Below are positions 4,746-45,393 of a stretch of DNA of 64,000 bases, piece by piece. The notes under the pieces are model-generated. The model was not told where the DNA came from and made no database searches. It was given only the letters and a program-made list of their open reading frames with translations. The stretch spans positions 75,916-139,915 of the forward strand of contig JBBIIL010000004.1 of the NCBI GenBank assembly GCA_037446495.1, written 5' to 3'. The stretch comes from Chloroflexota bacterium. GTDB lineage: Bacteria > Chloroflexota > Limnocylindria > Limnocylindrales > CSP1-4. The stretch's first letter is position 1; the number at the start of each line of letters is the position of its first letter. Made by a program: the position numbers and the translations under genes.

Positions 4746-4783
4746 ACACCGAACGGGGCCGGCCTGCCGGCCCCGTTCGGTGT
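4746..4783. terminator. Perfect 17-bp-stem hairpin between convergent RDD and vapC genes
   Basis: ACACCGAACGGGGCCGG-cctg-CCGGCCCCGTTCGGTGT, followed by CTGTC. Confidence 0.5.
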
Positions 4784-18920: not shown

Positions 18921-20447
18921 ATGACAGAGATCCTCACCGAATCGTTCTGCGAGCGGTGCGGCACTCGGTACACGTTCGAGACCGCGCGGCCCCGACATTC
19001 GCGAATCGGGCGTGCGAAGACCTTCACCAAGGGTCTCCGCAACTACGTCCTGTCCGACGATTCCCTGTCCGAGTCGATGGCGGACGCTCGGGGCGAGGAG
19101 GAGCAGCAGGCAACTGTCCACCAGCTCGACGCCTTCCACAAGACGTTCAACTTCTGCTTCGACTGTCGTCAGTACACGTGCGGCAACTGCTGGAACAACG
19201 AGGAGGGGCGCTGCCTCTCCTGCGCGCCGAGGGCCGACACGACGCTCAGCGAGCTTGAGCCCTCCACCTCGGCCGCCATCGCCGGCCGCCTGGCCGCCAT
19301 CGTGGCCCCGCCCGCGGAACCGGCGTCAGATGCCGACGCCATCGGGATCAGCGCATGGCCGGCATCCGACCTGCCGCCGGCGCCACTCGAGCTCGAGGAG
19401 GGGCCGCTCGACGGGATGGCCGAGGCCGAGGTACGGTCCGAGCCGGAGGCGGCGAGCCCCGCTGACGAGGCGCCGGTCGTCGAGGCCATCGCGGCGCCAT
19501 CCGAGCCCACGGTGGAGCCTGCGTTCGAGACGCTGGAGGGGGCTCATGGCGAGGCGATCGTCGAAGACCTGCCGGAGCCGCGTGCTGCGGCGCTTGACGC
19601 GCAGCTGGTCATCGCGCCCGCAGCCGAGCCCAAGACCGAGCCGGCGGTCGAGGATATCGTCGCCTCCGAGCCGCTCGTGGACACGGAGCGCCATGCTCCG
19701 CAGGGCCTCAAGCCCGGCGAGAGCGTCGAGGACGCGATCGCGGCGTACGAGGCTGCCCACCTGGTCGACGAGGCCTTGGACCAGCGGGCATCGGAGCCCG
19801 AGGTCGAGGCGGTACAGGTCGAGGCAGCCACGGAGCCCGAGGTCGAGGCCGTTGCGCGTGTCGTCACCGAGGCGCTGCCGGAGGCCGTCGCCGAGGCAGC
19901 CCCCGAGCCGGTTGCGGAGCCCGAGGCCGAGGCCGCACAGGTCGAGACAGCCGCGGAGCCCGAGGCCGAGGCCGTTGCGCGTGTCGTCACCGAGGCGCTG
20001 CCGGAGGCCGTCGCCGAGGCAGCCCCCGAGCCGGTTGCGGAGCCCGAGGCCGAGGCCGCACAGGTCGAGACAGCCGCGGAGTCGGAGGCGGCGGTCGTGG
20101 AGCCCGCGGCCAACCCGGAGTCCGAGCCTGCGTCCATGGCCGCCGGCTGGCTGACGGTCGCCCCGGACGACGGCACCGCGCCAGCGTGGCCGGAGCGCCC
20201 GAGCTGGCCGACGAACCGGCCGCCCATGTCCGGCACGCTCGCTGGCCGCAAGCTGATGCCGTCCGACAACGCAGCGGATCTCTGGGCCGCCTCGGCCCGC
20301 GAGGTCATTCACGGCGGCCCGCTCGGCGAGGCCCGTGCCGGTGCCGGACCAGCGCCCACTGCCACGGCGCAGCCCTGCATCGGCTGCGGCCTCTCGCTCT
20401 CGGCGAACGCACGCTTCTGCCGCCGTTGCGGCACCCGCCAGGGCTAG
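18921..20447 (+). CDS. Zinc-ribbon protein with acidic Ala/Glu/Pro repeat region
   Basis: The N-terminus has CERCGTRY...FCFDCRQYTCGNCWNNEEGRCLSC. The C-terminus has CIGCG...FCRRCGTRQG. The centre is E/A/P-rich with a tandem 41-aa repeat. It is divergent from fhaA. Confidence 0.7.
   Translation: MTEILTESFCERCGTRYTFETARPRHSRIGRAKTFTKGLRNYVLSDDSLSESMADARGEEEQQATVHQLDAFHKTFNFCFDCRQYTCGNCWNNEEGRCLSCAPRADTTLSELEPSTSAAIAGRLAAIVAPPAEPASDADAIGISAWPASDLPPAPLELEEGPLDGMAEAEVRSEPEAASPADEAPVVEAIAAPSEPTVEPAFETLEGAHGEAIVEDLPEPRAAALDAQLVIAPAAEPKTEPAVEDIVASEPLVDTERHAPQGLKPGESVEDAIAAYEAAHLVDEALDQRASEPEVEAVQVEAATEPEVEAVARVVTEALPEAVAEAAPEPVAEPEAEAAQVETAAEPEAEAVARVVTEALPEAVAEAAPEPVAEPEAEAAQVETAAESEAAVVEPAANPESEPASMAAGWLTVAPDDGTAPAWPERPSWPTNRPPMSGTLAGRKLMPSDNAADLWAASAREVIHGGPLGEARAGAGPAPTATAQPCIGCGLSLSANARFCRRCGTRQG
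19848..20081 (+). repeat. Tandem 123-bp (41-codon) direct repeat inside the zinc-ribbon CDS
   Basis: Copy 1 (19848..19970) and copy 2 (from 19971) are identical over >100 nt (GCCGTTGCGCGTGTCGTCACCGAGGCGCTGCCGGAGGCCGTCGCC...). A diverged partial unit precedes them from ~19828. Confidence 0.9.
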
Positions 20448-29648: not shown

Positions 29649-29736
29649 GGGCGAGTGGCGAAATGGCAGACGCGCCGGCCTTAGGAGCCGGTGCCGCGTG
29701 AGCGGCGTGTCGGTTCGACCCCGACCTCGCCTACCA
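29649..29736 (+). tRNA. tRNA-Leu (anticodon UAG), type II with long variable arm, CCA encoded
   Basis: I folded it by hand. The acceptor is GGGCGAG/CUCGCCU. The D-arm is GCG/CGC. The anticodon stem is CCGGC/GCCGG with loop CUUAGGA. The variable arm is GCCGC-GUGA-GCGGC. The T-arm is GUCGG-UUCGACC-CCGAC, followed by A-CCA. Confidence 0.9.
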
Positions 29737-37714: not shown

Positions 37715-38566
37715 ATGACGACCGCCAATCCCGCCCAGCTCGCGGCAGCCCGGCCCGCCCGGCAGGTCATCGCCCGGTTCTTCGACCGATGGTCCCTGAT
37801 CGTCTACACGGCCCTGGCCGTCATCTACCTGCTGATGCCGGTGGCGGTCATCGTCCTGTTCAGCTTCAACGACCCGGTCGGAAGGTCCAACTTCGTGTGG
37901 CAGGGCTTCACGCTCAAGTACTGGATGGATCCGTTCGGTCCGCTGGGCCTCTCGGACGCCGTCATCGTGAGCATCACGATCGCGATCCTGTCCACGGCGA
38001 TCGCCACGGCCCTGGGCACGCTCATCGCCATCGCCCTGGAGCGCTACCGCTTCCAGGGCAAGGGCCTGATGAACTCGCTGATCTTCCTGCCCATGGCCAC
38101 GCCCGAGATCATCATGGGCGCCTCGCTCCTCACCCTGTTCGTGTCCTACGGCTCGCCGCCACTGTTCCCGCTCAACTTCTTGACCATCCTCATCGCCCAC
38201 GTGATGTTCAACATCAGCTACGTGGTGGTCACCGTCCGGGCGCGGCTCGCGGGCTTCCCTCGACACCTCGAGGAGGCCGCCAGCGACCTGTACGCCAACG
38301 AGTGGCAGACCTTCTGGCGCGTCACCTTCCCATTGATCCTGCCCGGGATCGTGGCCGCCGCCCTGCTCGCGTTCAGCCTCTCGATCGACGACTTCGTGAT
38401 CACCAACTTCACGGCCGGCAAGACGCAGACCTTCCCGATGTTCATCTACGCCAAGAGCCGCATCGGCATCCCGGTGCAGGTGAACGTGATCGGAACCTGC
38501 ATCTTCCTGATCGCGGTGGGCTCGGTCGCCCTGACGACGCTCGTGGGGCGGCGGAAGCAGCGCTGA
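37715..38566 (+). CDS. potC: ABC transporter permease (PotC-like)
   Basis: It has the EAA loop LEEAASDLYANEWQTFWRVTFPLILPG and six TM helices. Confidence 0.88.
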   Translation: MTTANPAQLAAARPARQVIARFFDRWSLIVYTALAVIYLLMPVAVIVLFSFNDPVGRSNFVWQGFTLKYWMDPFGPLGLSDAVIVSITIAILSTAIATALGTLIAIALERYRFQGKGLMNSLIFLPMATPEIIMGASLLTLFVSYGSPPLFPLNFLTILIAHVMFNISYVVVTVRARLAGFPRHLEEAASDLYANEWQTFWRVTFPLILPGIVAAALLAFSLSIDDFVITNFTAGKTQTFPMFIYAKSRIGIPVQVNVIGTCIFLIAVGSVALTTLVGRRKQR

Positions 38567-39510
38567 TGGACCCCCTCGCCGTGGGAGCGCGCCCCACCCC
38601 GGCGACACCGCTCGGCGCGGTCGGCATCGAGGAGGCGGCGCGGCTCGTCGGCGCGTCGCCGTCCGCCCTTCGCGAGTGGGAGCGCCAGGGACTCGTCCGC
38701 CCCATGCGCACGAAGGGTGGCGCCCGCCGCTACCTGGCCGACGACGTGGACCGCCTCCAGCGGATCCGCACGTGGCGGACCGTGGACGGGCTCAACGCCG
38801 CCGCGATCCGGCGGCTGCTCGAGGGCGCAGCCCAGGGCGACGCGCCGGCGGGCGGGCGGCATCGGTCGATGGCCGGCGCCAATGCGACGCCCGATCGGGA
38901 CAGGTCGCCTGATGCCGGGCCCGGCGTCCCGGCTCCTGACGCGGCGTCCGAGTCGGCCGGCGCACGGGCGTTGCCAGCCGGCTCCCAGTTGCGCGACCTC
39001 CGCCGGGTGCGTGGCTACACGCTGCGTGAGGCGGCGGCGAGGAGCGGCCTCTCCAGTTCGTTCATCTCGTCGCTTGAGCGCGGTGTCACGGGGGCCTCGC
39101 TCGCGGCCCTCCGCCGGCTCGTGGAGGCATACGGCAGGACGGTGGGCGAGCTGCTCGCGGCCGATGCGCCGACGAGCGGGCGCCTGGTCCACCCCCCTGA
39201 GCGCCGGGTTCTGGACGCTGGGAACGGCATCCGGATCGAGGACCTGTTCGCGGTCCCGACCGCGCTCGAGTCCCAGCTGTTCGTGCTGGCGCCAGGCGCG
39301 TCCTCCGACGGCTACTACCGCCATGTCGGCGAGGAGTTCATGTACATCCTGGCCGGGTCGCTGGGCGTCTGGCTCGACGATCCGCACGAGTTCTACCGCC
39401 TCGAGCCGGGCGACGCGCTCACCTTCCCCTCGACCGTGGACCATCGCATCGCGGCCCTCGGCGCGGTCGAGACCCGTGTGCTGTGGATCAACACGCCGCC
39501 TACATTCTGA
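38566..39510 (+). CDS. Three-domain transcriptional regulator: MerR-type HTH + XRE-type HTH + cupin (PuuR-like C-terminal two-thirds)
   Basis: Its ATG overlaps the potC TGA. Residues ~20-85 read IEEAARLVGASPSALREWERQGLVRPMRTKGGARRYLADDVDRLQRIR (MerR). Residues ~135-190 read LRRVRGYTLREAAARSGLSSSFISSLERG (XRE). The C-terminus reads GEEFMYILAGSLGVWL...GDALTFPSTVDHR (cupin). Confidence 0.8.
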   Translation: MDPLAVGARPTPATPLGAVGIEEAARLVGASPSALREWERQGLVRPMRTKGGARRYLADDVDRLQRIRTWRTVDGLNAAAIRRLLEGAAQGDAPAGGRHRSMAGANATPDRDRSPDAGPGVPAPDAASESAGARALPAGSQLRDLRRVRGYTLREAAARSGLSSSFISSLERGVTGASLAALRRLVEAYGRTVGELLAADAPTSGRLVHPPERRVLDAGNGIRIEDLFAVPTALESQLFVLAPGASSDGYYRHVGEEFMYILAGSLGVWLDDPHEFYRLEPGDALTFPSTVDHRIAALGAVETRVLWINTPPTF

Positions 39511-39581: not shown

Positions 39582-40898
39582 ATGACGCAGACCGCACCGT
39601 CCCCCGCGCAGACCTGGCCCGACACCTCGGTTGTGCCGCCGGTCTGGGGCAGGATCTTCAACCTCGAGGTCGAGCGGGGCGAGGGCTCCTGGCTGGTCAC
39701 CCGCGACGGCGGGCGATACCTGGACTACACCTGCGGCATCGGCGTGACCAACACCGGCCACGCCCACCCGCGCGTCGTGAAGGCCGTCCAGGACCAGGCG
39801 GCGAAGCTGCTCCACGGGCAGCAGAACATCGTCTATCACGAGCCTGGCCTGCGCCTGTACGAGCGGCTGGCGCACGTCCTCCCGGGCGGCCCGTGGCAGG
39901 CGTTCCTGTCCAACTCGGGCGCCGAGGCGGTGGAGGCGGCGGTCAAGCTCGCGCGCATCGCCACGGGACGGCCCGCGGTCATCGCCTTCCGCTACTCGTT
40001 CCACGGCCGGACGGCCCAGACGATGGCGCTGACGGCCGCGAAGGACGTCTACCGCGGCGCCTTCGAGCCGCTGCCGGGCTCGATCTACCACGCCGCCTAC
40101 CCGTACTGCTACCGCGCGGCCGGCGGCGCCCACGACCCGGCCGACTGCACCTGCGACTGGGAGGCGCAGCTGGACCTGCTGTTCCACCAGCTGGTGTTCC
40201 CCGACAGGGTGGCCGCGATCATCATCGAGCCCGTCATCGGCGAGGGCGGCTACATCGTGCCGCCTCCGGGCTTCCTGCCGCGCCTGCGCGAGATCACCCG
40301 CGAGCACGGCATCCTGCTGATCGCGGACGAGGTGCAGACCGGCTTCGGCCGCACCGGCGAGCTGTTCGCGGTCCGCCACTGGGACGTCGAGCCCGACATC
40401 CTGGTCATGGCCAAGGGCATCGCGTCCGGGCTGCCGCTGTCGGGGATCATCGCCCGGGCCGACATCATGGCCAAGTTCTCGCCCAGCTCGCACGGCGGCA
40501 CGTTCGGCGGCAACGTCATCGCCTGCGCGGCAGCCCTCGCCACCCTCGACGTCATCGAGGATGAGGGCCTGGTCGCCAACGCCCGGGCTCGCGGCGAGCA
40601 GTTCCTGGCCGGCCTGCGGGCGCTCCAGGCGGTGCACCCCTCGATCGGCGACGTCCGTGGCCTCGGCCTGATGCTGGCCATGGAGTTCGTCAAGCCGGGC
40701 GAGGGCGACGGCCGCGTGCCCGACGCTGCGCTGACCAGGCGCGTCCAGGTTGAGTGCTTCAACCGCAAGCTGATGATCCTGACCGCGGGCTCGTACGTGA
40801 ATGTCGTGCGGATCATCCCGCCGCTGGTCACGACCTCCCAAGAGGTGGACCTCGCCCTGGGGATGATCGGCGAGGCCCTCGACGCCGCAGGCGCCTGA
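39582..40898 (+). CDS. Class III PLP aminotransferase (4-aminobutyrate/putrescine aminotransferase-like)
   Basis: It has an AGGAGGA RBS. Motifs include LDYTCGIGVTNTGHAHPRV, SNSGAEAVEAAVKLAR, IADEVQTGFGRTG, and MAKGIASGLP with the PLP lysine. Confidence 0.9.
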   Translation: MTQTAPSPAQTWPDTSVVPPVWGRIFNLEVERGEGSWLVTRDGGRYLDYTCGIGVTNTGHAHPRVVKAVQDQAAKLLHGQQNIVYHEPGLRLYERLAHVLPGGPWQAFLSNSGAEAVEAAVKLARIATGRPAVIAFRYSFHGRTAQTMALTAAKDVYRGAFEPLPGSIYHAAYPYCYRAAGGAHDPADCTCDWEAQLDLLFHQLVFPDRVAAIIIEPVIGEGGYIVPPPGFLPRLREITREHGILLIADEVQTGFGRTGELFAVRHWDVEPDILVMAKGIASGLPLSGIIARADIMAKFSPSSHGGTFGGNVIACAAALATLDVIEDEGLVANARARGEQFLAGLRALQAVHPSIGDVRGLGLMLAMEFVKPGEGDGRVPDAALTRRVQVECFNRKLMILTAGSYVNVVRIIPPLVTTSQEVDLALGMIGEALDAAGA

Positions 40899-40913
40899 GC
40901 GCATGATCGCGGC

Positions 40914-41600
40914 ATGACCGAGGGGGACGAGCGACCCGACACCGGACCGGAGGGCGAGGCTGCTGCCCGGGCGCGAGTCGACTCGCTCTTCGAGCGCTTC
41001 AACAGCCTCACGCCGACCGAGCTCGGGCACATCGGCCTCCAGCGCCAGGACCCCGAGCACCACCGGACCAGGATGGAGGTCGTGGAGGCGGCCGTCGAGG
41101 CGTCGGGCCGGAGCGTCCTGCTCGGCGAGGCGAGGGCCGAGGCGCGCGAGGTCGTCCTCCGCCGCTATGGCGAGGGCACCCTCAACCCGACGTGGGTGGG
41201 GCTCAACTGGGCGGTCTCCGGCGGGCCGGCAGAAGACCGGGCGGCGATCGTCGTGGCGCTGGCGGACGCCGCATCGGCTGCCGTGGTCGAGGACCTCGTG
41301 GGCGCGGAGGTCGTAGAAGCGCTGTCCATCGACGCCCAGCATCTGCTGGGCCTCGCCTCGGGCGACGCTTACGAGGGCGCGCTCGCCCGAGCGATCGAGC
41401 CGCCTGCCCCGGACCTCGAGGATCCGCCAGGCCGCACGGCCGTCGTATACGGCGGCGCGGCGATCGGCGGGGTTCTGGTGTTCCTCGCGGGCGACATGCT
41501 GGTGACGCCGCTCATCGGCCTCGCGGGCGGGATCGTGTTCGCGATGATCGTCATCGCGCAGGGGCGCCGCGGCCCGGGCGAGCGGCCGCCGAGGCGGTGA
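40914..41600 (+). CDS. hypothetical protein with C-terminal double TM
   Basis: It is 228 aa with coding-like composition. The soluble domain is acidic. The hydrophobic tail reads VVYGGAAIGGVLVFLAGDMLVTPLIGLAGGIVFAMIVIA. Confidence 0.55.
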   Translation: MTEGDERPDTGPEGEAAARARVDSLFERFNSLTPTELGHIGLQRQDPEHHRTRMEVVEAAVEASGRSVLLGEARAEAREVVLRRYGEGTLNPTWVGLNWAVSGGPAEDRAAIVVALADAASAAVVEDLVGAEVVEALSIDAQHLLGLASGDAYEGALARAIEPPAPDLEDPPGRTAVVYGGAAIGGVLVFLAGDMLVTPLIGLAGGIVFAMIVIAQGRRGPGERPPRR

Positions 41601-41665
41601 TCGAGCCCAACCGCCTCACGAACCCCGGCGAGGCTGCGGCGCTCGAGCGGGTGGCGGCGATCGGC

Positions 41666-42066
41666 GAGCCGCAGCGCAGCTCACCGCCTCTCCCGGGTGG
41701 GCACATTCGACTGAGCATCAGTCGCCCGCCACCGCGTCGAGCCGCAGCGTGGCTCACCACCCCTCCGGGCGCGCCCCAGTTCGACTGACAGTCGATGGAA
41801 CCAGCGGCCTCGCGTCGGTTCCTCGCCGCTCAGGCGAAGAACGGCCCATCCGACTCGCGAAGTCCGCCCCGTGGATGCGCCTCCTTCGCCGGTGCGTCGA
41901 AGTGGCGACGGTCCGTGCCCGAACACTTCGACTGTCCGTCGAATGGCGGGAAGGGCAAGGTACCCACAGCGTGCGGGCACCTGCACGCCCGGGACCCTCG
42001 ACTGCCAGTCGAAGAGACGCGGGGCCAGGCGCCCGTCAGGGCACGCCCGGGACCCGCGACGCTCAG
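41666..42066. repeat. Degenerate ~72-bp tandem array (5-6 units), each unit centred on a TCGAC..GTCGA palindrome
   Basis: The palindromes lie at 41708-41724, 41781-41795, 41852-41864 (degenerate), 41927-41943 and 41998-42012. Units 41666-41738 and 41739-41815 align along their full length. The array lies between convergent genes. Confidence 0.7.
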
Positions 42067-42911
42067 CCCGACGTCTGGAGGCGGCGCAGGATCTCGTCGT
42101 GGAGCAGCCCGTTGGTGGCCACGAACGACACCGCGTCGATCCGCCGATCGCCGAACGCGTCGGTCACCCGCCCGCCCGCCTCCTCGATCACGATCAGCGG
42201 CGCGGCGAGGTCCCAGGTCTTCATCCCGACCTCCATCATCGCCTCGGCCGCGCCCTCCGCCAGCAGCGTGTAGCCCCAGAAGTCGCCGAAGCCGCGATCG
42301 CGCCAGGCCGAGGCGACCAGCGTGTCGAAGCCGGGCATGAGGCCCGACGCGACGTTGTCCGTGCGCGACCCGTACAGCAGCTGCGCGTCCTCCAGGCTCG
42401 CCACGCGCGAGACTCGAACCGGCCGCTCCCCGTCCAGCCCGCGCGCCCACGCGCCCAGGCCGCGCGCCGCCCACCAGCGCTCGCGCAGGACCGGCGCGGA
42501 GATCATCCCGGCCTGGATCTCGCCGTCCACCTCCACCGCCAGCAGCGTCCCGAACAGGGGCACGCCGCGGATGAAGTTGTGGGTGGCGTCGATCGGGTCG
42601 ATGTACCAGCGCGTCGGGGCGTCGCCGGCCTCGGTCCCGTACTCCTCCCCGATCAGCCCGTGGTCCGGATAGCGCGCCCCGATCCGTGACCGGATCTCCC
42701 GCTCGACGCCCTGGTCTGCCACGGTCACGAACGAGCGGTCGGGCTTGCGCTCGAGGACCAGGTCGCGCCGGAAATGGGCGCGCGCGATGTCGTCGGCGGC
42801 GTCGCACGCCTCGTGGGCGAACGCGAGCCAGTCGCGCAGGGTGGCCTCGGGGACGCGGGCGTGGGCGGCGGACCAGGCGGGTCCGAAGGGCTGGTCGGTC
42901 ATGACCGTCAT
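42063..42911 (-). CDS. Inositol monophosphatase family protein (possibly histidinol-phosphatase HisN-like)
   Basis: It has DRSFVTVADQGVEREI, GEEYG, WYIDPIDATHNFIRG, and WDLAAPLIVIEEAGG. I placed the start at MTVMTDQPF. Confidence 0.85.
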   Translation of the reverse strand: MTVMTDQPFGPAWSAAHARVPEATLRDWLAFAHEACDAADDIARAHFRRDLVLERKPDRSFVTVADQGVEREIRSRIGARYPDHGLIGEEYGTEAGDAPTRWYIDPIDATHNFIRGVPLFGTLLAVEVDGEIQAGMISAPVLRERWWAARGLGAWARGLDGERPVRVSRVASLEDAQLLYGSRTDNVASGLMPGFDTLVASAWRDRGFGDFWGYTLLAEGAAEAMMEVGMKTWDLAAPLIVIEEAGGRVTDAFGDRRIDAVSFVATNGLLHDEILRRLQTSG

Positions 42912-42939
42912 GATGCCCCATCGGGGGCCGGGTGCGTGC

Positions 42940-45393
42940 TCAGGCCCGGATGCGCTCGCCGGTCGGGTCGAAGAGCGGGTCGCGAACCACCTCGAAGCCC
43001 ACCGCGGTGCCGAAGACGTCGATCTCGCCACGGGCGCCGACAAGGATCTCGGGCGGGAGATGGGCGAACGCGATCGACTTGCCGACGGTGTAGCCGGCGC
43101 CGCCGGACGTCACGCGCCCCACGACCCGGCCCTCCACGCGCACGGGCTCATTGCCCAGGCAGACGGAGCGCGGATCGTCGAGGACGAGGCAGCGCAGGCG
43201 CTTGCGCGGCCCGGCGGCCTTCGCGGCCACGAGCGCCTCGCGCCCGAGGAAGTCGCCCTTCTCCAGCCGGACGGCGAAACCGAGGCCCGCCTCGTACGGC
43301 GTCTCCTCGGGCGTGATGTCGGCCCCCCAGGCGCGGTAGCCCTTCTCGAGGCGCATGGCGTCGATGGCGCGGTAGCCGCCCGCGACCAGGCCCCTGGGAC
43401 GGCCCGCCTCCCAGAGGGTGTCCCACAGGGTCGCGCCGTACTCGGATGGGGCGTAGAGCTCCCAGCCCAGCTCGCCCACGTAGGTCACGCGCACGGCGAG
43501 CAGCGGGACCGGGCCCACGGTGACCTGGCGGGCAGTGAGGTACGGGAACGCGGCGTCTGACACGTCGTCGGTCGTGGTGGTGGCGAGGACGTCCCGCGCT
43601 GCCGGGCCCCACAGGCCGAAGCACGCGCGCGAGGACGTGACGTCCGCCACGCGCACGGAGCCGTCGATGGGCGCGTGCTTGTGGATCCAGGCGAGGTCGT
43701 GGTTGCCGAACGCGGTGCCGGTGACCAGCAGGAAGGCGTCGGCCGCCGTCCGCGTCACGGTCAGGTCGCACTCGATGCCGCCCCGCCGGTTGAGCAGCTG
43801 CGTGTAGGTGACCGAGCCGACCGGCCGGTCGATGTCGTTCGCGCACAGCCAGCCCAGCAGCGCCACCGCCCCCGGCCCCGTCACCTCGATCTTGGCGAAC
43901 GACGTCTCGTCGAACAGCGCCGCCGTGGTTCGGGTCGCGATGGACTCCGCGGCGATCGCCGGATGCCAGATCCGGCCCGCCCAGCCCCGCGGCCGGAGCG
44001 CCTCGAGCGCCGCCTCGCCGCCCCAGCGCTCGTCGGCCGCGTTGGGTGCGAACCAGTTCGGCCTCTCCCAGCCGCTCTTCTCGCCGAAGCTCGCGCCCAG
44101 CGCCGCCAGCTGCGGATACGCTGGGGAGAGGCGCAGCGGCCGGCCCGCCTGGCGTTCCTCGGCCGGGTAGTGGATGTCGTAGTAGGTGGCGTAGTTCTCA
44201 GACGAGCGGGCGAGCGTGAACGCGCGGCTCCGGTACTGCGCCCCGAAGCGCCGGATGTCCATCCTCCAGAGGTCCAGCTCGGGCTCGCCGTCCACGATCC
44301 AGTTCGCCATCTCCCGGCCGATGCCGCCGGCGCCGGCGATGCCGTGGGCCGAGAACCCGGCCGCGACGAAGAACCCCCGGACATCGCTCTCGCCCAGGAT
44401 GTACTCGTTGTCCGGGGTGAAGCCCTCGGGGCCGTTGATCATCCGCGTGACCGTGGCGTTCTCCATCGCCGGGACGCGCCGGATGGCGCCATCCAGGATC
44501 GACTCGAAGCGCGGCCAGTCGGGGTCCAGCAGGCGGTGGTTGAAATCGGCGGGGATGCCGTCGAGCGCCCACGGCTGTGGGTTGTGCTCGTAGCCGCCCA
44601 TGAGCAGGCCGCCGGTCTCCTCGCGGAAGTACACCAGGTTGTCCGGGTCGCGCAGCTGGGGCAGGTCGCGGGTCACGCCCTCGATCGGTCCGGTCAGCAG
44701 GTACTGATGCGCCATCGGGATGAGCGGCACGGTCACGCCCGCCAGCCGCCCGATCTCCGGGGCGTACATCCCGCCCGCGTTGACAACTACGTCGGCCTCG
44801 ATCTCCACGCGCTCGCCGTCGCGCTCGCAGGTGAGCCCGCGGACACGCCCCTCGCGCACGTCAACCGCCACCACGCGATGGTGCGGCAGGATCCGCACGC
44901 CGCGCCTCCGGGCGCCGGCCGCCAAGGCGAACGCCAGGTTCGACGGGTCGAGCCATCCGTCCGTGGGCAGCCAGACCGCGCCCAGCACGCCGTCCGGGCG
45001 CATCAGCGGGAAGCGGTCCTGCGCCTGCTGTGCACTGACCAGATCGATCGGCAGGCCGAAGGTCGCCGCCCACGCCGCCTGGCGCTGGAGCTCCTCGTAG
45101 CGCGCCTTCGTGCTGGCCAGGCGCAGCGAGCCCACCTCGTGCCACGCCGGGTCCACGCCCGTCTCCGCGGCCAGCCGACGGTACAGCTCGACGCTGTACA
45201 TGATCATCCGGGTGAGCGTCACCGAGCCCCGCAGCTGCCCGACGAGGCCCGCGGAGTGGAACGTTGACCCGGACGTCAGCTCGGCACGGTCCACGAGCAC
45301 GACATCAGTCCAGCCGCGGTGGGCGAGGTGGAACGCGATGGACGTGCCGCCCACGCCACCCCCGATGACCACAGCCCGCGCGTGCTCCGTCAC
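42940..45393 (-). CDS. FAD-dependent oxidoreductase fused to GcvT-like aminomethyltransferase domain (dimethylglycine/sarcosine dehydrogenase family)
   Basis: The N-terminus has VVIGGGVGGTSIAFHLA (the DAO fold). The C-terminal GcvT-like region reads ...LRLEKGYRAWG... Length is 817 aa. It has a GTG start with a GGAGGGG RBS. Confidence 0.9.
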   Translation of the reverse strand: MTEHARAVVIGGGVGGTSIAFHLAHRGWTDVVLVDRAELTSGSTFHSAGLVGQLRGSVTLTRMIMYSVELYRRLAAETGVDPAWHEVGSLRLASTKARYEELQRQAAWAATFGLPIDLVSAQQAQDRFPLMRPDGVLGAVWLPTDGWLDPSNLAFALAAGARRRGVRILPHHRVVAVDVREGRVRGLTCERDGERVEIEADVVVNAGGMYAPEIGRLAGVTVPLIPMAHQYLLTGPIEGVTRDLPQLRDPDNLVYFREETGGLLMGGYEHNPQPWALDGIPADFNHRLLDPDWPRFESILDGAIRRVPAMENATVTRMINGPEGFTPDNEYILGESDVRGFFVAAGFSAHGIAGAGGIGREMANWIVDGEPELDLWRMDIRRFGAQYRSRAFTLARSSENYATYYDIHYPAEERQAGRPLRLSPAYPQLAALGASFGEKSGWERPNWFAPNAADERWGGEAALEALRPRGWAGRIWHPAIAAESIATRTTAALFDETSFAKIEVTGPGAVALLGWLCANDIDRPVGSVTYTQLLNRRGGIECDLTVTRTAADAFLLVTGTAFGNHDLAWIHKHAPIDGSVRVADVTSSRACFGLWGPAARDVLATTTTDDVSDAAFPYLTARQVTVGPVPLLAVRVTYVGELGWELYAPSEYGATLWDTLWEAGRPRGLVAGGYRAIDAMRLEKGYRAWGADITPEETPYEAGLGFAVRLEKGDFLGREALVAAKAAGPRKRLRCLVLDDPRSVCLGNEPVRVEGRVVGRVTSGGAGYTVGKSIAFAHLPPEILVGARGEIDVFGTAVGFEVVRDPLFDPTGERIRA

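Follow-up and report, generated by a model that had tools for sequence, protein, structure and literature searches.

The gap between two convergent genes in the stretch of DNA that we analyzed (64 kb, hereafter the window), from a Limnocylindria-like Chloroflexota genome, holds six copies of a 17- to 19-bp mirror-symmetric motif. The array is real but most likely of a broadly known kind, enlarged by local duplications beside a dead gene, and our preferred, still tentative, reading is that it constitutes a lineage-specific, untagged palindromic module similar to REP, BIME, and REPIN elements. The palindromes are local to the gap and far beyond chance: TCGACTG matches 12 times in the 64 kb, with half of these matches (6/12) inside the gap; the 17-mer, at up to 3 mismatches, matches three times against 0.25 expected, confined to the gap; and TCGMC-N5-GKCGA matches eight times against 1.59 expected, with five of these matches lying within 232 bp.

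All 10 sites compared, six in the window and four in the relative L332, fit TTCG-M-C-N5-G-K-CGAA (consensus C-TTCG-[A/C]-C-N5-G-[G/T]-CGAA-G), the leftmost, S0, as an N9 variant. S0 (41706-41724, center 41715; TTCGACTGA-gca-TCAGTCG) carries a 4-nt central insertion. S1 (41780-41796, center 41788; TTCGAC-tgaca-GTCGAt) and S2 (41822-41838, center 41830; cTCGCC-gctca-GGCGAA) form a left doublet (41780..41838), and S3 (41885-41901, center 41893; TTCGCC-ggtgc-GTCGAA) and S4 (41927-41943, center 41935; TTCGAC-tgtcc-GTCGAA) form a right doublet (41885..41943). The motif scan places the members of each doublet 42 bp apart, each doublet being a 59-nt nested palindrome, and the two doublets lie 105 bp apart, giving a module of about 165 bp, located at the meeting point of two converging operons. 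The 46-bp central spacer between them (41839..41884) is poorly conserved in sequence and, in an ungapped alignment, has the same length as in L332. S5 (41997-42013, center 42005; cTCGAC-tgcca-GTCGAA) duplicates the S4 region at a 70-bp offset. The sites are flanked by cag, cac, or ccc on the left and by tgg or gag on the right.

The initial annotation had recognized four strong palindromes (CGACTGA-gca-TCAGTCG at 41708-24, TCGACTG-a-CAGTCGA at 41781-95, TTCGAC-tgtcc-GTCGAA at 41927-43, and TCGACTG-c-CAGTCGA at 41998-42012), whose coordinates were borne out, and had described a uniform period of about 72 bp, which was not. The true center-to-center spacings are 73, 42, 63, 42, and 70 bp; two sites (41822-38 and 41885-901) had been missed, and a supposedly decayed third site within the central spacer (41852-64) lacks conservation in the ortholog and scarcely folds (-2.7 and -4.8 kcal/mol). 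Tandem Repeats Finder called no array here, and the apparent period arises because the edges of the module have, it seems, been duplicated in the window lineage, by 73 bp on the left and by 70 and 58 bp on the right. Choosing palindromes by eye for their even spacing can hide the real site list, and one orthologous sequence sufficed for the correction.

That the flanking genes converge was confirmed by a GC3 coding signal that extends to about 41600 on the plus strand and starts from about 42063 on the minus strand. The ORF list and the GC3 frame signal place on the left (40914..41600, plus strand) a predicted 228-aa membrane protein, for which a Pfam search returned no family and which has orthologs of 227 aa in L014 and 231 aa in L001. 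On the right (42063..42911, minus strand) lies the gene for an inositol-monophosphatase-family protein (Pfam PF00459), homologs of which are named histidinol-phosphatase (hisN) in several sources. The stop of the left-hand gene overlaps the next start (GTGA), and this start belongs to the surviving 5' part of a deleted paralog gene (41597..41665, plus strand), whose translation, VIEPNRLTNPGEAAALERVAAIG, matches the N termini of proteins of 265 aa in L005, 235 aa in L014, and 234 aa in L013; intact, the paralog gene encodes 235 to 265 aa in relatives. The first ~70 bp of the gap, previously taken for spacer, are therefore what is left of a gene.

Next to the remnant, repeat finding and global alignment identified unit U1 (41666..41738), which holds S0 and is the left tandem duplicate of 41739-41815. 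The two units align as had been proposed, with 56 of 83 columns identical and 83% identity over the first 35 nt, and a gene-end alignment suggests that the first ~25 nt of U1 may stem from the 3' terminus of the deleted gene. Repeats and alignments also delimit the right-hand local duplications (41973..42062), which comprise S5 and a partial copy at 42041-42060 that is 95% identical to 41983-42002, in agreement with the decayed extra copy noted earlier at the hisN stop; L332 has only 35 bp in their place. It had been remarked that 460 bp is retained here though no promoter is needed; this is largely explained by the gene remnant and the recent local duplications. GC3 gives no frame signal across 41720-42060 and a weak residual one at 41600-41719, and the substitutions relative to L332 lack codon periodicity (35/30/25), which upholds the earlier conclusion that this is not a protein repeat and led us to reject a small protein-coding ORF in the gap.

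The stretch at 41765..41978 is orthologous to the whole 214-bp hisN 3' gap of L332, L333, and L334, aligning at 58% identity and without indels; the L332 hisN is 91% identical to that of the window. The spacing of the four core sites (41780-41943) is identical in the two lineages (42-63-42 bp). Against L332, the sites are 81% identical, the spacers 47% (null, 30 ± 3.6%), and the four-fold sites of hisN 62%, so the earlier view of conserved dyads and varying spacers is borne out. The left-doublet spacer is 64% identical when compared with the L332 doublet. Comparisons between doublet spacers are weak (identities of 0.40-0.56 inverted versus 0.28-0.44 direct), and the symmetric sites show no orientation. 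A likeness of the L332 central spacer to an 86-aa zinc-ribbon ORF of the L001 gap, extending over 35 nt (10/19 aa), is too marginal to be taken for a relic, its score of 30 against a shuffle maximum of 29 lying at the edge of chance.

The window contains one cluster of the motif, and in 1.66 Mb of other DNA, apart from one phage, only L332-4 have clusters, in the orthologous gap. No second copy was found in ~60 kb of other close-relative sequence, much of which consists of duplicate contigs. Viral scans with the palindromes gave chance-level single matches, except for unrelated repeat regions in L038, L343, and L347; a phage link was rejected on these grounds, and a plasmid link because no plasmid matched.

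REPs are stem-loop palindromes, 14 to 40 nt long in Escherichia coli (PMC12306157), that are dispersed genome-wide, often in more than 100 copies (PMC2817692); the tagged super-families carry an unpaired GTAG or CGTC tetranucleotide at one palindrome end (PMC3733652), and regularly spaced REPs of alternating orientation make up BIMEs (PMC2817692). Palindromes set at regular intervals by linkers that are alternately short and long, and inverted doublets that form a long hairpin, are the architectures of BIMEs and REPINs (PMC2817692, PMC3337134). These architectures resemble that of the array, contrary to the previous statement that no such element had been described. Using these sources (PMC12306157, PMC2817692, PMC3733652, PMC3337134) for the criteria that define REPs and for the architectures of BIMEs and REPINs, we found that the array lies outside protein-coding sequence and that its sites are short palindromes capable of forming stem-loops and sharing a consensus. 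Like the REP/BIME clusters of Proteobacteria such as E. coli and Xanthomonas campestris, it is built of short extragenic consensus palindromes with alternating linkers, lies in an intergenic position of the kind favored by REPs, especially 3' ends, has a species-specific sequence, and has expanded by duplication (PMC2817692, PMC12306157). It differs in its host, an uncultured Chloroflexota lineage, in stems of only 6 to 7 bp, in having a single cluster in 64 kb, and in the lack of a GTAG or CGTC tag adjoining any site; orientation cannot be assigned to the window sites because each is itself symmetric. The missing tag, the short single-site stems, and a non-covarying arm position (position 5) count against the REP/BIME reading, as does the failure to find copies outside the locus in the window and in the ~60 kb from relatives, since multicopy dispersal defines REPs.

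With REPINs, the RAYT-mobilized inverted REP doublets of Pseudomonas fluorescens, the array shares paired similar palindromes predicted to form one long hairpin (59 nt) and persistence at the same locus, here since the divergence from the L332 lineage, although the doublet repeats described in P. fluorescens are longer, at ~89 bp (PMC2817692). A REPIN system includes a RAYT, an IS200-like Y1 transposase whose gene is flanked by the cognate REPs. The genes next to the array encode a membrane protein and hisN. A closer likeness in sequence comes from GTAG-tagged REP doublets, GGTAGAG-TCGACTGtCAGTCGAC-TCTACC, on metagenome contigs of 66 to 68% GC (Stenotrophomonas-like) that also carry the Smal4 REP listed in PMC2817692. 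These contain the same 15-bp core, TCGACTGnCAGTCGA, and are likewise arranged as doublets, 55 to 60 bp apart, but their palindrome is ~27 bp long, has GTAG heads, and occurs in many copies per contig. Because the window copies lack the extended palindrome and the GTAG heads, the common core is most likely a convergence in a small sequence space. The window-type core matches at least four unrelated repeat families, which suggests that, with so many palindromic families in existence, a 7-nt arm simply recurs by chance.

Across relatives, the hisN 3' gap varies from 4 to more than 800 bp: it measures 4 bp in L337, a sister of L332 (four-fold identity, 0.83), and 83 bp in L338 and L010-12. Sister lineages with the same gene set, and with the MerR+XRE+cupin regulator gene on contigs long enough to include it, lack the array. 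In L013, L014, L336, and L006, the same gap is occupied by an unrelated palindrome, TGACCGC-N3-GCGGTCA, and between L336 and L013 (four-fold identity, 0.97), three of four sites have been lost in L336. Both families share a 2+2 layout, with pair-to-pair distances of 103 bp (TGACCGC) versus 105 bp (window), but they differ in sequence and in pair spacing (29 versus 42 bp), and a common origin was rejected (local alignment z about 0). Dispersal is seen in the TGACCGC family, which is found again, its geometry unchanged and its pair-spacers homologous (z 14), in a noncoding gap at a different locus of L110, another high-GC Chloroflexota genome, and which is a dispersed intergenic repeat in other phyla, with 23 stretches in one Terriglobia genome, including between pth-rpsF-rpsR, and further arrays in Myxococcota and others. 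TGACCGC arrays expand in tandem, and growth by tandem duplication is seen in the window and in L006. Clustering of flanking ORFs, all against all, revealed no specific neighbor such as a transposase, returning only common families (SDR, ABC), and the pair-flanked ORF in L160 is ribosomal protein S6, not a RAYT. A universal protein site behind the cross-phylum arrays was rejected as unnecessary, given the chance reuse of 7-nt arms.

Given this gap turnover among relatives and a second family that is dispersed elsewhere, a lineage-specific REP/MITE-like family is the best fit among the candidates originally put forward. Among genomes whose hisN proteins are 86 to 96% identical, this one convergent junction may be vacant, occupied by either of two unrelated palindrome families, or enlarged through duplication, and the locus thereby offers a view of how REP-like elements turn over. 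Given that both families use the same gap, the locus itself may matter.

Under the REP/BIME-like reading, we propose a model in which the module, older than the split from the L332 lineage according to the comparison of relatives, was kept in the window lineage, where the neighboring paralog gene would later have been deleted internally. Each doublet would form one long hairpin or cruciform, or two small ones, and the module would mark the 3' ends of both converging transcripts, its symmetric hairpins, alike on both strands, serving as a stabilizer or transcript-end element. Alternatively, as has been suggested for REP/BIME, a protein such as gyrase or a nucleoid protein may dock on it. Such modules would be dispensable and would come, go, and replace one another in the manner of semi-selfish intergenic repeats. 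Fixed spacer lengths at near-saturated divergence, weak stems, and a non-covarying position suggest that recognition of duplex DNA by a protein fits as well as or better than a hairpin function.

Recognition by a protein is also the basis of a different scenario, doubtful but deserving serious weight, in which the array is a single-locus phased array for a dimeric sequence-specific DNA-binding protein and is operator-, centromere-, or boundary-like. The protein would bind four 19-bp dyads on one DNA face in a cooperative manner, possibly forming a ~105-bp loop, and would block or insulate the converging transcription units or organize local topology. This would suit a consensus with invariant outer TTCG/CGAA letters around a degenerate arm position 5 (A/C versus T/G), which is complementary in five of nine sites and whose mismatches are transversions without wobble intermediates. 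Conservation of the sites above synonymous sites and spacers, the lack of any other cluster within 64 kb, and a gene for a MerR+XRE+cupin regulator ~2 kb upstream in the same operon point in the same direction. The earlier claim that ~72 bp, or seven turns, places the sites on one face rested on a mis-set site list; integral spacing holds only in the four-site core, where 42, 63, and 42 bp, kept without indels, correspond to 4.0, 6.0, and 4.0 helical turns, and S0 precedes S1 by 73 bp (6.95 turns). The 29-74-29 spacing of the TGACCGC family is likewise exact in three lineages and at two loci. However, by a rough estimate, integral phasing of two independent distances arises by chance about once in 12 cases, S5 is out of phase (6.67 turns), and the half-sites of S0 lie 4 bp further apart. 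There is no obvious regulatory target, since no promoter-like site was found at the locus and the central spacer is not conserved, and the array is missing from sister lineages that retain the same genes, with an unrelated motif substituting at the same place. An iteron- or centromere-like array is expected to lie next to its rep or par gene; neither domain turned up among the neighbors examined, which were ABC permeases, the MerR/XRE/cupin regulator, an aminotransferase, a choline-kinase-like protein, a DMGDH-like enzyme, hisN, membrane proteins, and a permease.

We consider it unlikely that the array is functionless debris of gene decay and replication-slippage duplications, whose palindromes persist through proneness to duplication or gene conversion. 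The gene remnant at 41597-41665, the three local duplications, the wide range of gap lengths, and the other, unrelated tandem repeats in the gaps of L006 and L001 would all be expected of such debris, but sites better conserved than four-fold positions and spacers, with no indels, and the same 2+2 geometry in two unrelated families argue against it.

That shared geometry invites a further and quite improbable hypothesis. Because both families consist of two pairs ~104 bp apart, in fixed geometry, and alternate at the same junction in sister lineages, TTCGMC-N5-GKCGAA and TGACCGC-N3-GCGGTCA could be cis-sites able to stand in for one another in a modular protein-DNA system whose specificity is swappable, or RAYT-independent mobile modules targeting such junctions. 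The former would be a sequence-specific boundary, transcription-collision, or topology device at converging operons.

Folding also bears on the proposal of a structured noncoding RNA or shared 3'-untranslated-region element, the transcribed tail of one or both converging operons, with hairpins that would control mRNA decay or termination, which we regard as very doubtful. The doublets fold into long hairpins at -23 to -35 kcal/mol; the left one reaches -28 kcal/mol (z -3.1), the right one forms a single long hairpin (-24.7/-25.8 kcal/mol), and the whole gap folds better than shuffles (z -2.9 on the plus strand, -3.95 on the minus strand). In silico, site-with-site pairing is the minimum-energy structure in five of eight doublet-strand folds, the long-hairpin model pairs 78% of cells, and the right doublet shows two pairing-preserving double changes (G-C to C-G and T-A to G-C). 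Pair counts, however, do not exceed shuffles for the long-hairpin (88/500) or the small-hairpin model (94/500), leaving the two indistinguishable, and the transversions at position 5 and the dispensability of the array in sister lineages speak against an RNA as well. A search of 40500-43000 against Rfam 15 gave no match even at E values up to 10, spurious ones aside, the only gathering-level match in the window being a tRNA at 29649, so the multihairpin RNA candidate of the initial annotation drew no support from either Rfam or pair counts. No intrinsic terminator (hairpin plus T/U run) was found in 41000-42700. Individually, the window sites form hairpins with stems of 6 to 7 bp at -5.3 to -11.8 kcal/mol, and those of the TGACCGC family are stronger (-10.6 to -12.2 kcal/mol); of the four L332 sites, three are weaker still (-1 to -4.6 kcal/mol) but retain their TTCG...CGAA letters.

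A CRISPR array, which consists of near-identical repeats of ~23 to 50 bp at a fixed period with unique spacers, was rejected because the window repeats are diverged, measure 17 to 19 bp, are irregularly spaced (73/42/63/42/70), and have some duplicated "spacers," and an origin, terminus, or dif site was rejected because GC skew shows no inflection.

For uncultured Chloroflexota such as Limnocylindria, we found no published account of REP-like repeats; within the Chloroflexi, the REP catalogues consulted yielded a single case, a GTAG family of Thermomicrobium roseum (PMC3733652). Should the modules mark where transcripts end in a high-GC genome without U-tract terminators, they would aid the annotation of 3' ends; if they bind a protein with exact phasing, an unknown DNA-binding factor is implied.

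High-GC bacteria use U-less ("I-shaped") hairpins at gene ends and carry conserved terminator-like repeats such as the mycobacterial TRIT. The array resembles such hairpins in its GC-rich dyads between convergent genes and in the lack of a T run, but they are single long stems, whereas the window motif is nested, repeated, and conserved in sequence. The other U-less gene-end hairpins of the host genome fold at -26 to -39 kcal/mol, close to the range of the doublets, and examples in the window lie at 2025-2052 and 4746-4783.

The palindrome array in the gap between the convergent genes at 40914..41600 (+ strand, encoding a 228-aa membrane protein) and 42063..42911 (- strand) is a real feature of this ~72% G+C window. 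The minus-strand product is a Pfam Inositol_P protein whose homologs are called histidinol-phosphatase by several sources (hisN), the close ones coming from metagenome-assembled genomes, some of them named Candidatus Limnocylindrales, phylum Chloroflexota. A GC3 frame plot indicated coding to ~41600 on the plus strand and from ~42063 on the minus strand, with no frame signal between these points apart from a weak residual in 41600-41719. The four strong palindromes of the initial annotation were all found in place. Half of the TCGACTG heptamers in the 64 kb (6 of 12) fall within the gap, as do all three matches to the 17-mer with up to 3 mismatches (0.25 expected in the window), and a search of Rfam returned no match for the palindromes.

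Since the gap of a related locus, L332-334, carries palindromes of the same type, we took it as the basis for a new motif definition, T-TCG-[A/C]-C-N5-G-[G/T]-CGA-A, most often flanked by C and G. The window holds 8 matches (1.59 expected). Five lie together in a 232-bp stretch of the gap, at 41780-96, 41822-38, 41885-901, 41927-43 and 41997-42013, and at 41706-24 there is a variant copy whose center carries a 4-nt insertion. Two of these sites had been overlooked, and the supposedly decayed site at 41852-64 lacks conservation and has hardly any tendency to fold. Nor did the proposed uniform period of ~72 bp hold up, as Tandem Repeats Finder reported none and the centers are 73, 42, 63, 42 and 70 bp apart.

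The L332 gap, next to a hisN 91% identical to that of the window, contains four sites with a spacing of 42-63-42, identical to that in the window, and all 214 bp of it align with 41765-41978 without indels. Identity is 81% in the sites and 47% in the spacers (off-register controls, 30 +/- 3.6%), bearing out the earlier proposal that the arms are conserved while the spacers vary. These results indicate that the dyads and all three spacer lengths have been kept since the lineages split. In hisN, identity at fourfold degenerate sites is 62%, near saturation at this GC3, and the spacer sequences have thus diverged at roughly the rate of silent sites. The core consists of two doublets (paired sites 42 bp apart), which together form a nested-palindrome module spanning ~165 bp.

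Around this core lie a gene remnant and local duplications. The 228-aa gene ends in a stop codon that overlaps with a GTG (GTGA), and the frame opened there encodes VIEPNRLTNPGEAAALERVAAIG, the N terminus of a 235-265-aa paralog of that gene, which is located downstream of it in four relatives (L005, L013, L014 and L336). In the window, the body of the paralog gene has been lost, leaving a plus-strand remnant at 41597-41665, possibly to ~41700, with the first ~23 codons recognizable. The deletion breakpoint, ~41666, is the start of the first repeat unit delimited in the initial annotation, and the ~25 nt that follow may be the 3' end of the deleted gene. Three local duplications account for the remainder of the gap: 41666-41738 is a 73-bp tandem copy of 41739-41815, the region of the site at 41997-42013 copies that of the site at 41927-43 at a 70-bp offset, and 42041-60 duplicates 41983-42002 with 95% identity. 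In L332, only 35 bp separate the last site from the hisN stop. Duplications next to the gene remnant have enlarged the module in the window, and the apparent ~72-bp period therefore arose because two independent duplications flank the older 42-63-42 core.

Across eleven lineages in which the hisN protein is 86 to 93% identical to that of the window, the hisN 3' gap is hypervariable. It measures 4 bp in L337 and 92 bp in L005, both without palindromes, 83 bp, without a palindrome array, in L338 and L010-12, and 214 bp, with the window-type array, in L332-334. A different palindrome, TGACCGC-N3-GCGGTCA, is found once in the 104-bp gap of L336 (L336:1617-1720) and as arrays in those of L014 (196 bp, L014:1811-2006), L013 (231 bp, L013:2027-2257) and L006 (497 bp; array at L006:4900-5180, plus other repeats). 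L337, with its 4-bp gap, is the sister of L332 (fourfold identity, 0.83); L336 and L013 are nearly one species (0.97), yet L336 lacks three of the four L013 sites. The window-type module predates the split of the two lineages that carry it and is dispensable. Four tandem copies of CACGGGCAGCCGGCGCG adjoin the L006 array (L006:5180-5280), showing that tandem repeats of unrelated sequence also gather in this gap. The gap of L001, which exceeds 800 bp, holds other repeats and small open reading frames (L001:4841-6190: an 86-aa zinc-ribbon frame, CPKC...CEDC; a 132-aa membrane frame; a 22-bp tandem repeat); the L332 central spacer has a marginal 35-nt match (10/19 aa) to the zinc-ribbon frame. The convergent junction at hisN accumulates repeats.

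The TGACCGC family has no detectable sequence homology with the window-type family. Its geometry is fixed at 29-74-29 in L013 and L014, and the same geometry occurs in another Chloroflexota genome (75% G+C) in a noncoding gap at a different locus, with no hisN nearby (L110:261-409), and with significantly homologous pair-spacers (z = 14). Scanning a genome collection for TGACCGC pairs returned at least 120 stretches from many phyla (L093-L211, e.g., L107:1200-1378, L160:6502-7052 and L125:1922-4269). Among the matches listed, one Terriglobia genome accounts for 23 stretches, in which the period is 26-27 bp and which include arrays separating pth, rpsF and rpsR as well as two thiolase-like genes. 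A deltaproteobacterial genome carries 11 and 17 copies with a 51-bp period, L113 carries the symmetric variant TGGCCGC...GCGGCCA, and no common neighbor gene was found. With this spread and no shared neighbor, the family has the character of a palindromic repeat dispersed among intergenic regions.

The window module would work most like REP/BIME/REPIN elements as defined previously (PMC12306157, PMC2817692, PMC3733652, PMC3337134), although we stop short of calling it a proven REP. It is extragenic, palindromic and short, its copies share a consensus, and its sites are arranged as doublets, as in REPINs; in contrast to tagged REPs, neither GTAG nor CGTC tags accompany its copies. The motif forms one cluster in the 64 kb and none outside the gap in the short contigs of relatives.

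The main rival is a putative locus-specific, phased protein-binding array, for which the fixed geometry, a degenerate arm position that does not covary and the repeated use of one junction by two palindrome families argue. Predicted folding energies of individual sites lie between -5.3 and -11.8 kcal/mol in the window; three of the four L332 sites reach only -1 to -4.6 kcal/mol, although the TTCG...CGAA letters are retained. At arm position 5 the base is A or C, opposite T or G; the two are complementary in 5 of 9 sites, as independence predicts, and this absence of covariation favors a site that is recognized as duplex DNA and is degenerate at one position. In helical turns, the 42-63-42 spacing corresponds to 4, 6 and 4, which by our estimate would occur by accident in ~1 in 12 cases; the 29-bp spacing of the TGACCGC family is not integral. 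Conversely, each site pair with its 25-nt spacer is a 59-nt nested palindrome. All doublets fold at -23 to -35 kcal/mol (z down to -5.3), most of them as one long hairpin at minimum energy, near the -26 to -39 kcal/mol of other U-less gene-end hairpins of this genome, and two double changes in the right doublet preserve pairing. The proportions of cells paired under long-hairpin and small-hairpin models (78% and 80%) show no excess over shuffles (88/500 and 94/500, respectively) and do not separate the two models.

Pairs of window-type palindromes spaced 55-85 bp apart were found at least 170 times in a metagenome scan. Among the matches listed, 139 of 170 are GTAG-tagged doublets, GGTAGAG-TCGACTGtCAGTCGAC-TCTACC, on contigs of 66-68% G+C (L213-L331), several per long contig (e.g., L213:1554-1626 and L226:292-862). 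They share the 15-bp core of the window, and their contigs also carry a Stenotrophomonas REP catalogued in PMC2817692. Other, unrelated families have the same core, including GTAGCT-tagged repeats (L248 and L284) and repeats on contigs of ~41-47% G+C (L243, L250 and others). We read the common core as a small sequence space reused by very many palindromic repeat families, and by the same reasoning the TGACCGC arrays of different phyla call for no universal protein.

Two phage contigs have palindrome arrays of their own, neither related to the module: a TCGAC-rich 114-bp repeat upstream of a gene (L038:1830-2030) and, in an AT-rich phage (L347:4089-4450), five copies of CCAATTCGCCtttggGGCGAATTGG. 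Elsewhere in the window, perfect GC-rich hairpins without a T run at 4746-4783 (18-bp stem, -38 kcal/mol) and 2025-2052 (11-bp stem, -26.5 kcal/mol) probably belong to the U-less gene-end hairpins that this genome typically has. A 123-bp tandem repeat at 19792-20089 (2.4 copies, 95% matches, GAGGCC/GCCGAG-rich) is probably a coding Glu/Ala/Pro-rich repeat. A regulator with an unusual combination of MerR, XRE-type HTH and cupin domains (38560-39507), upstream of a class-III aminotransferase gene, is kept in relatives both with and without the palindrome array.
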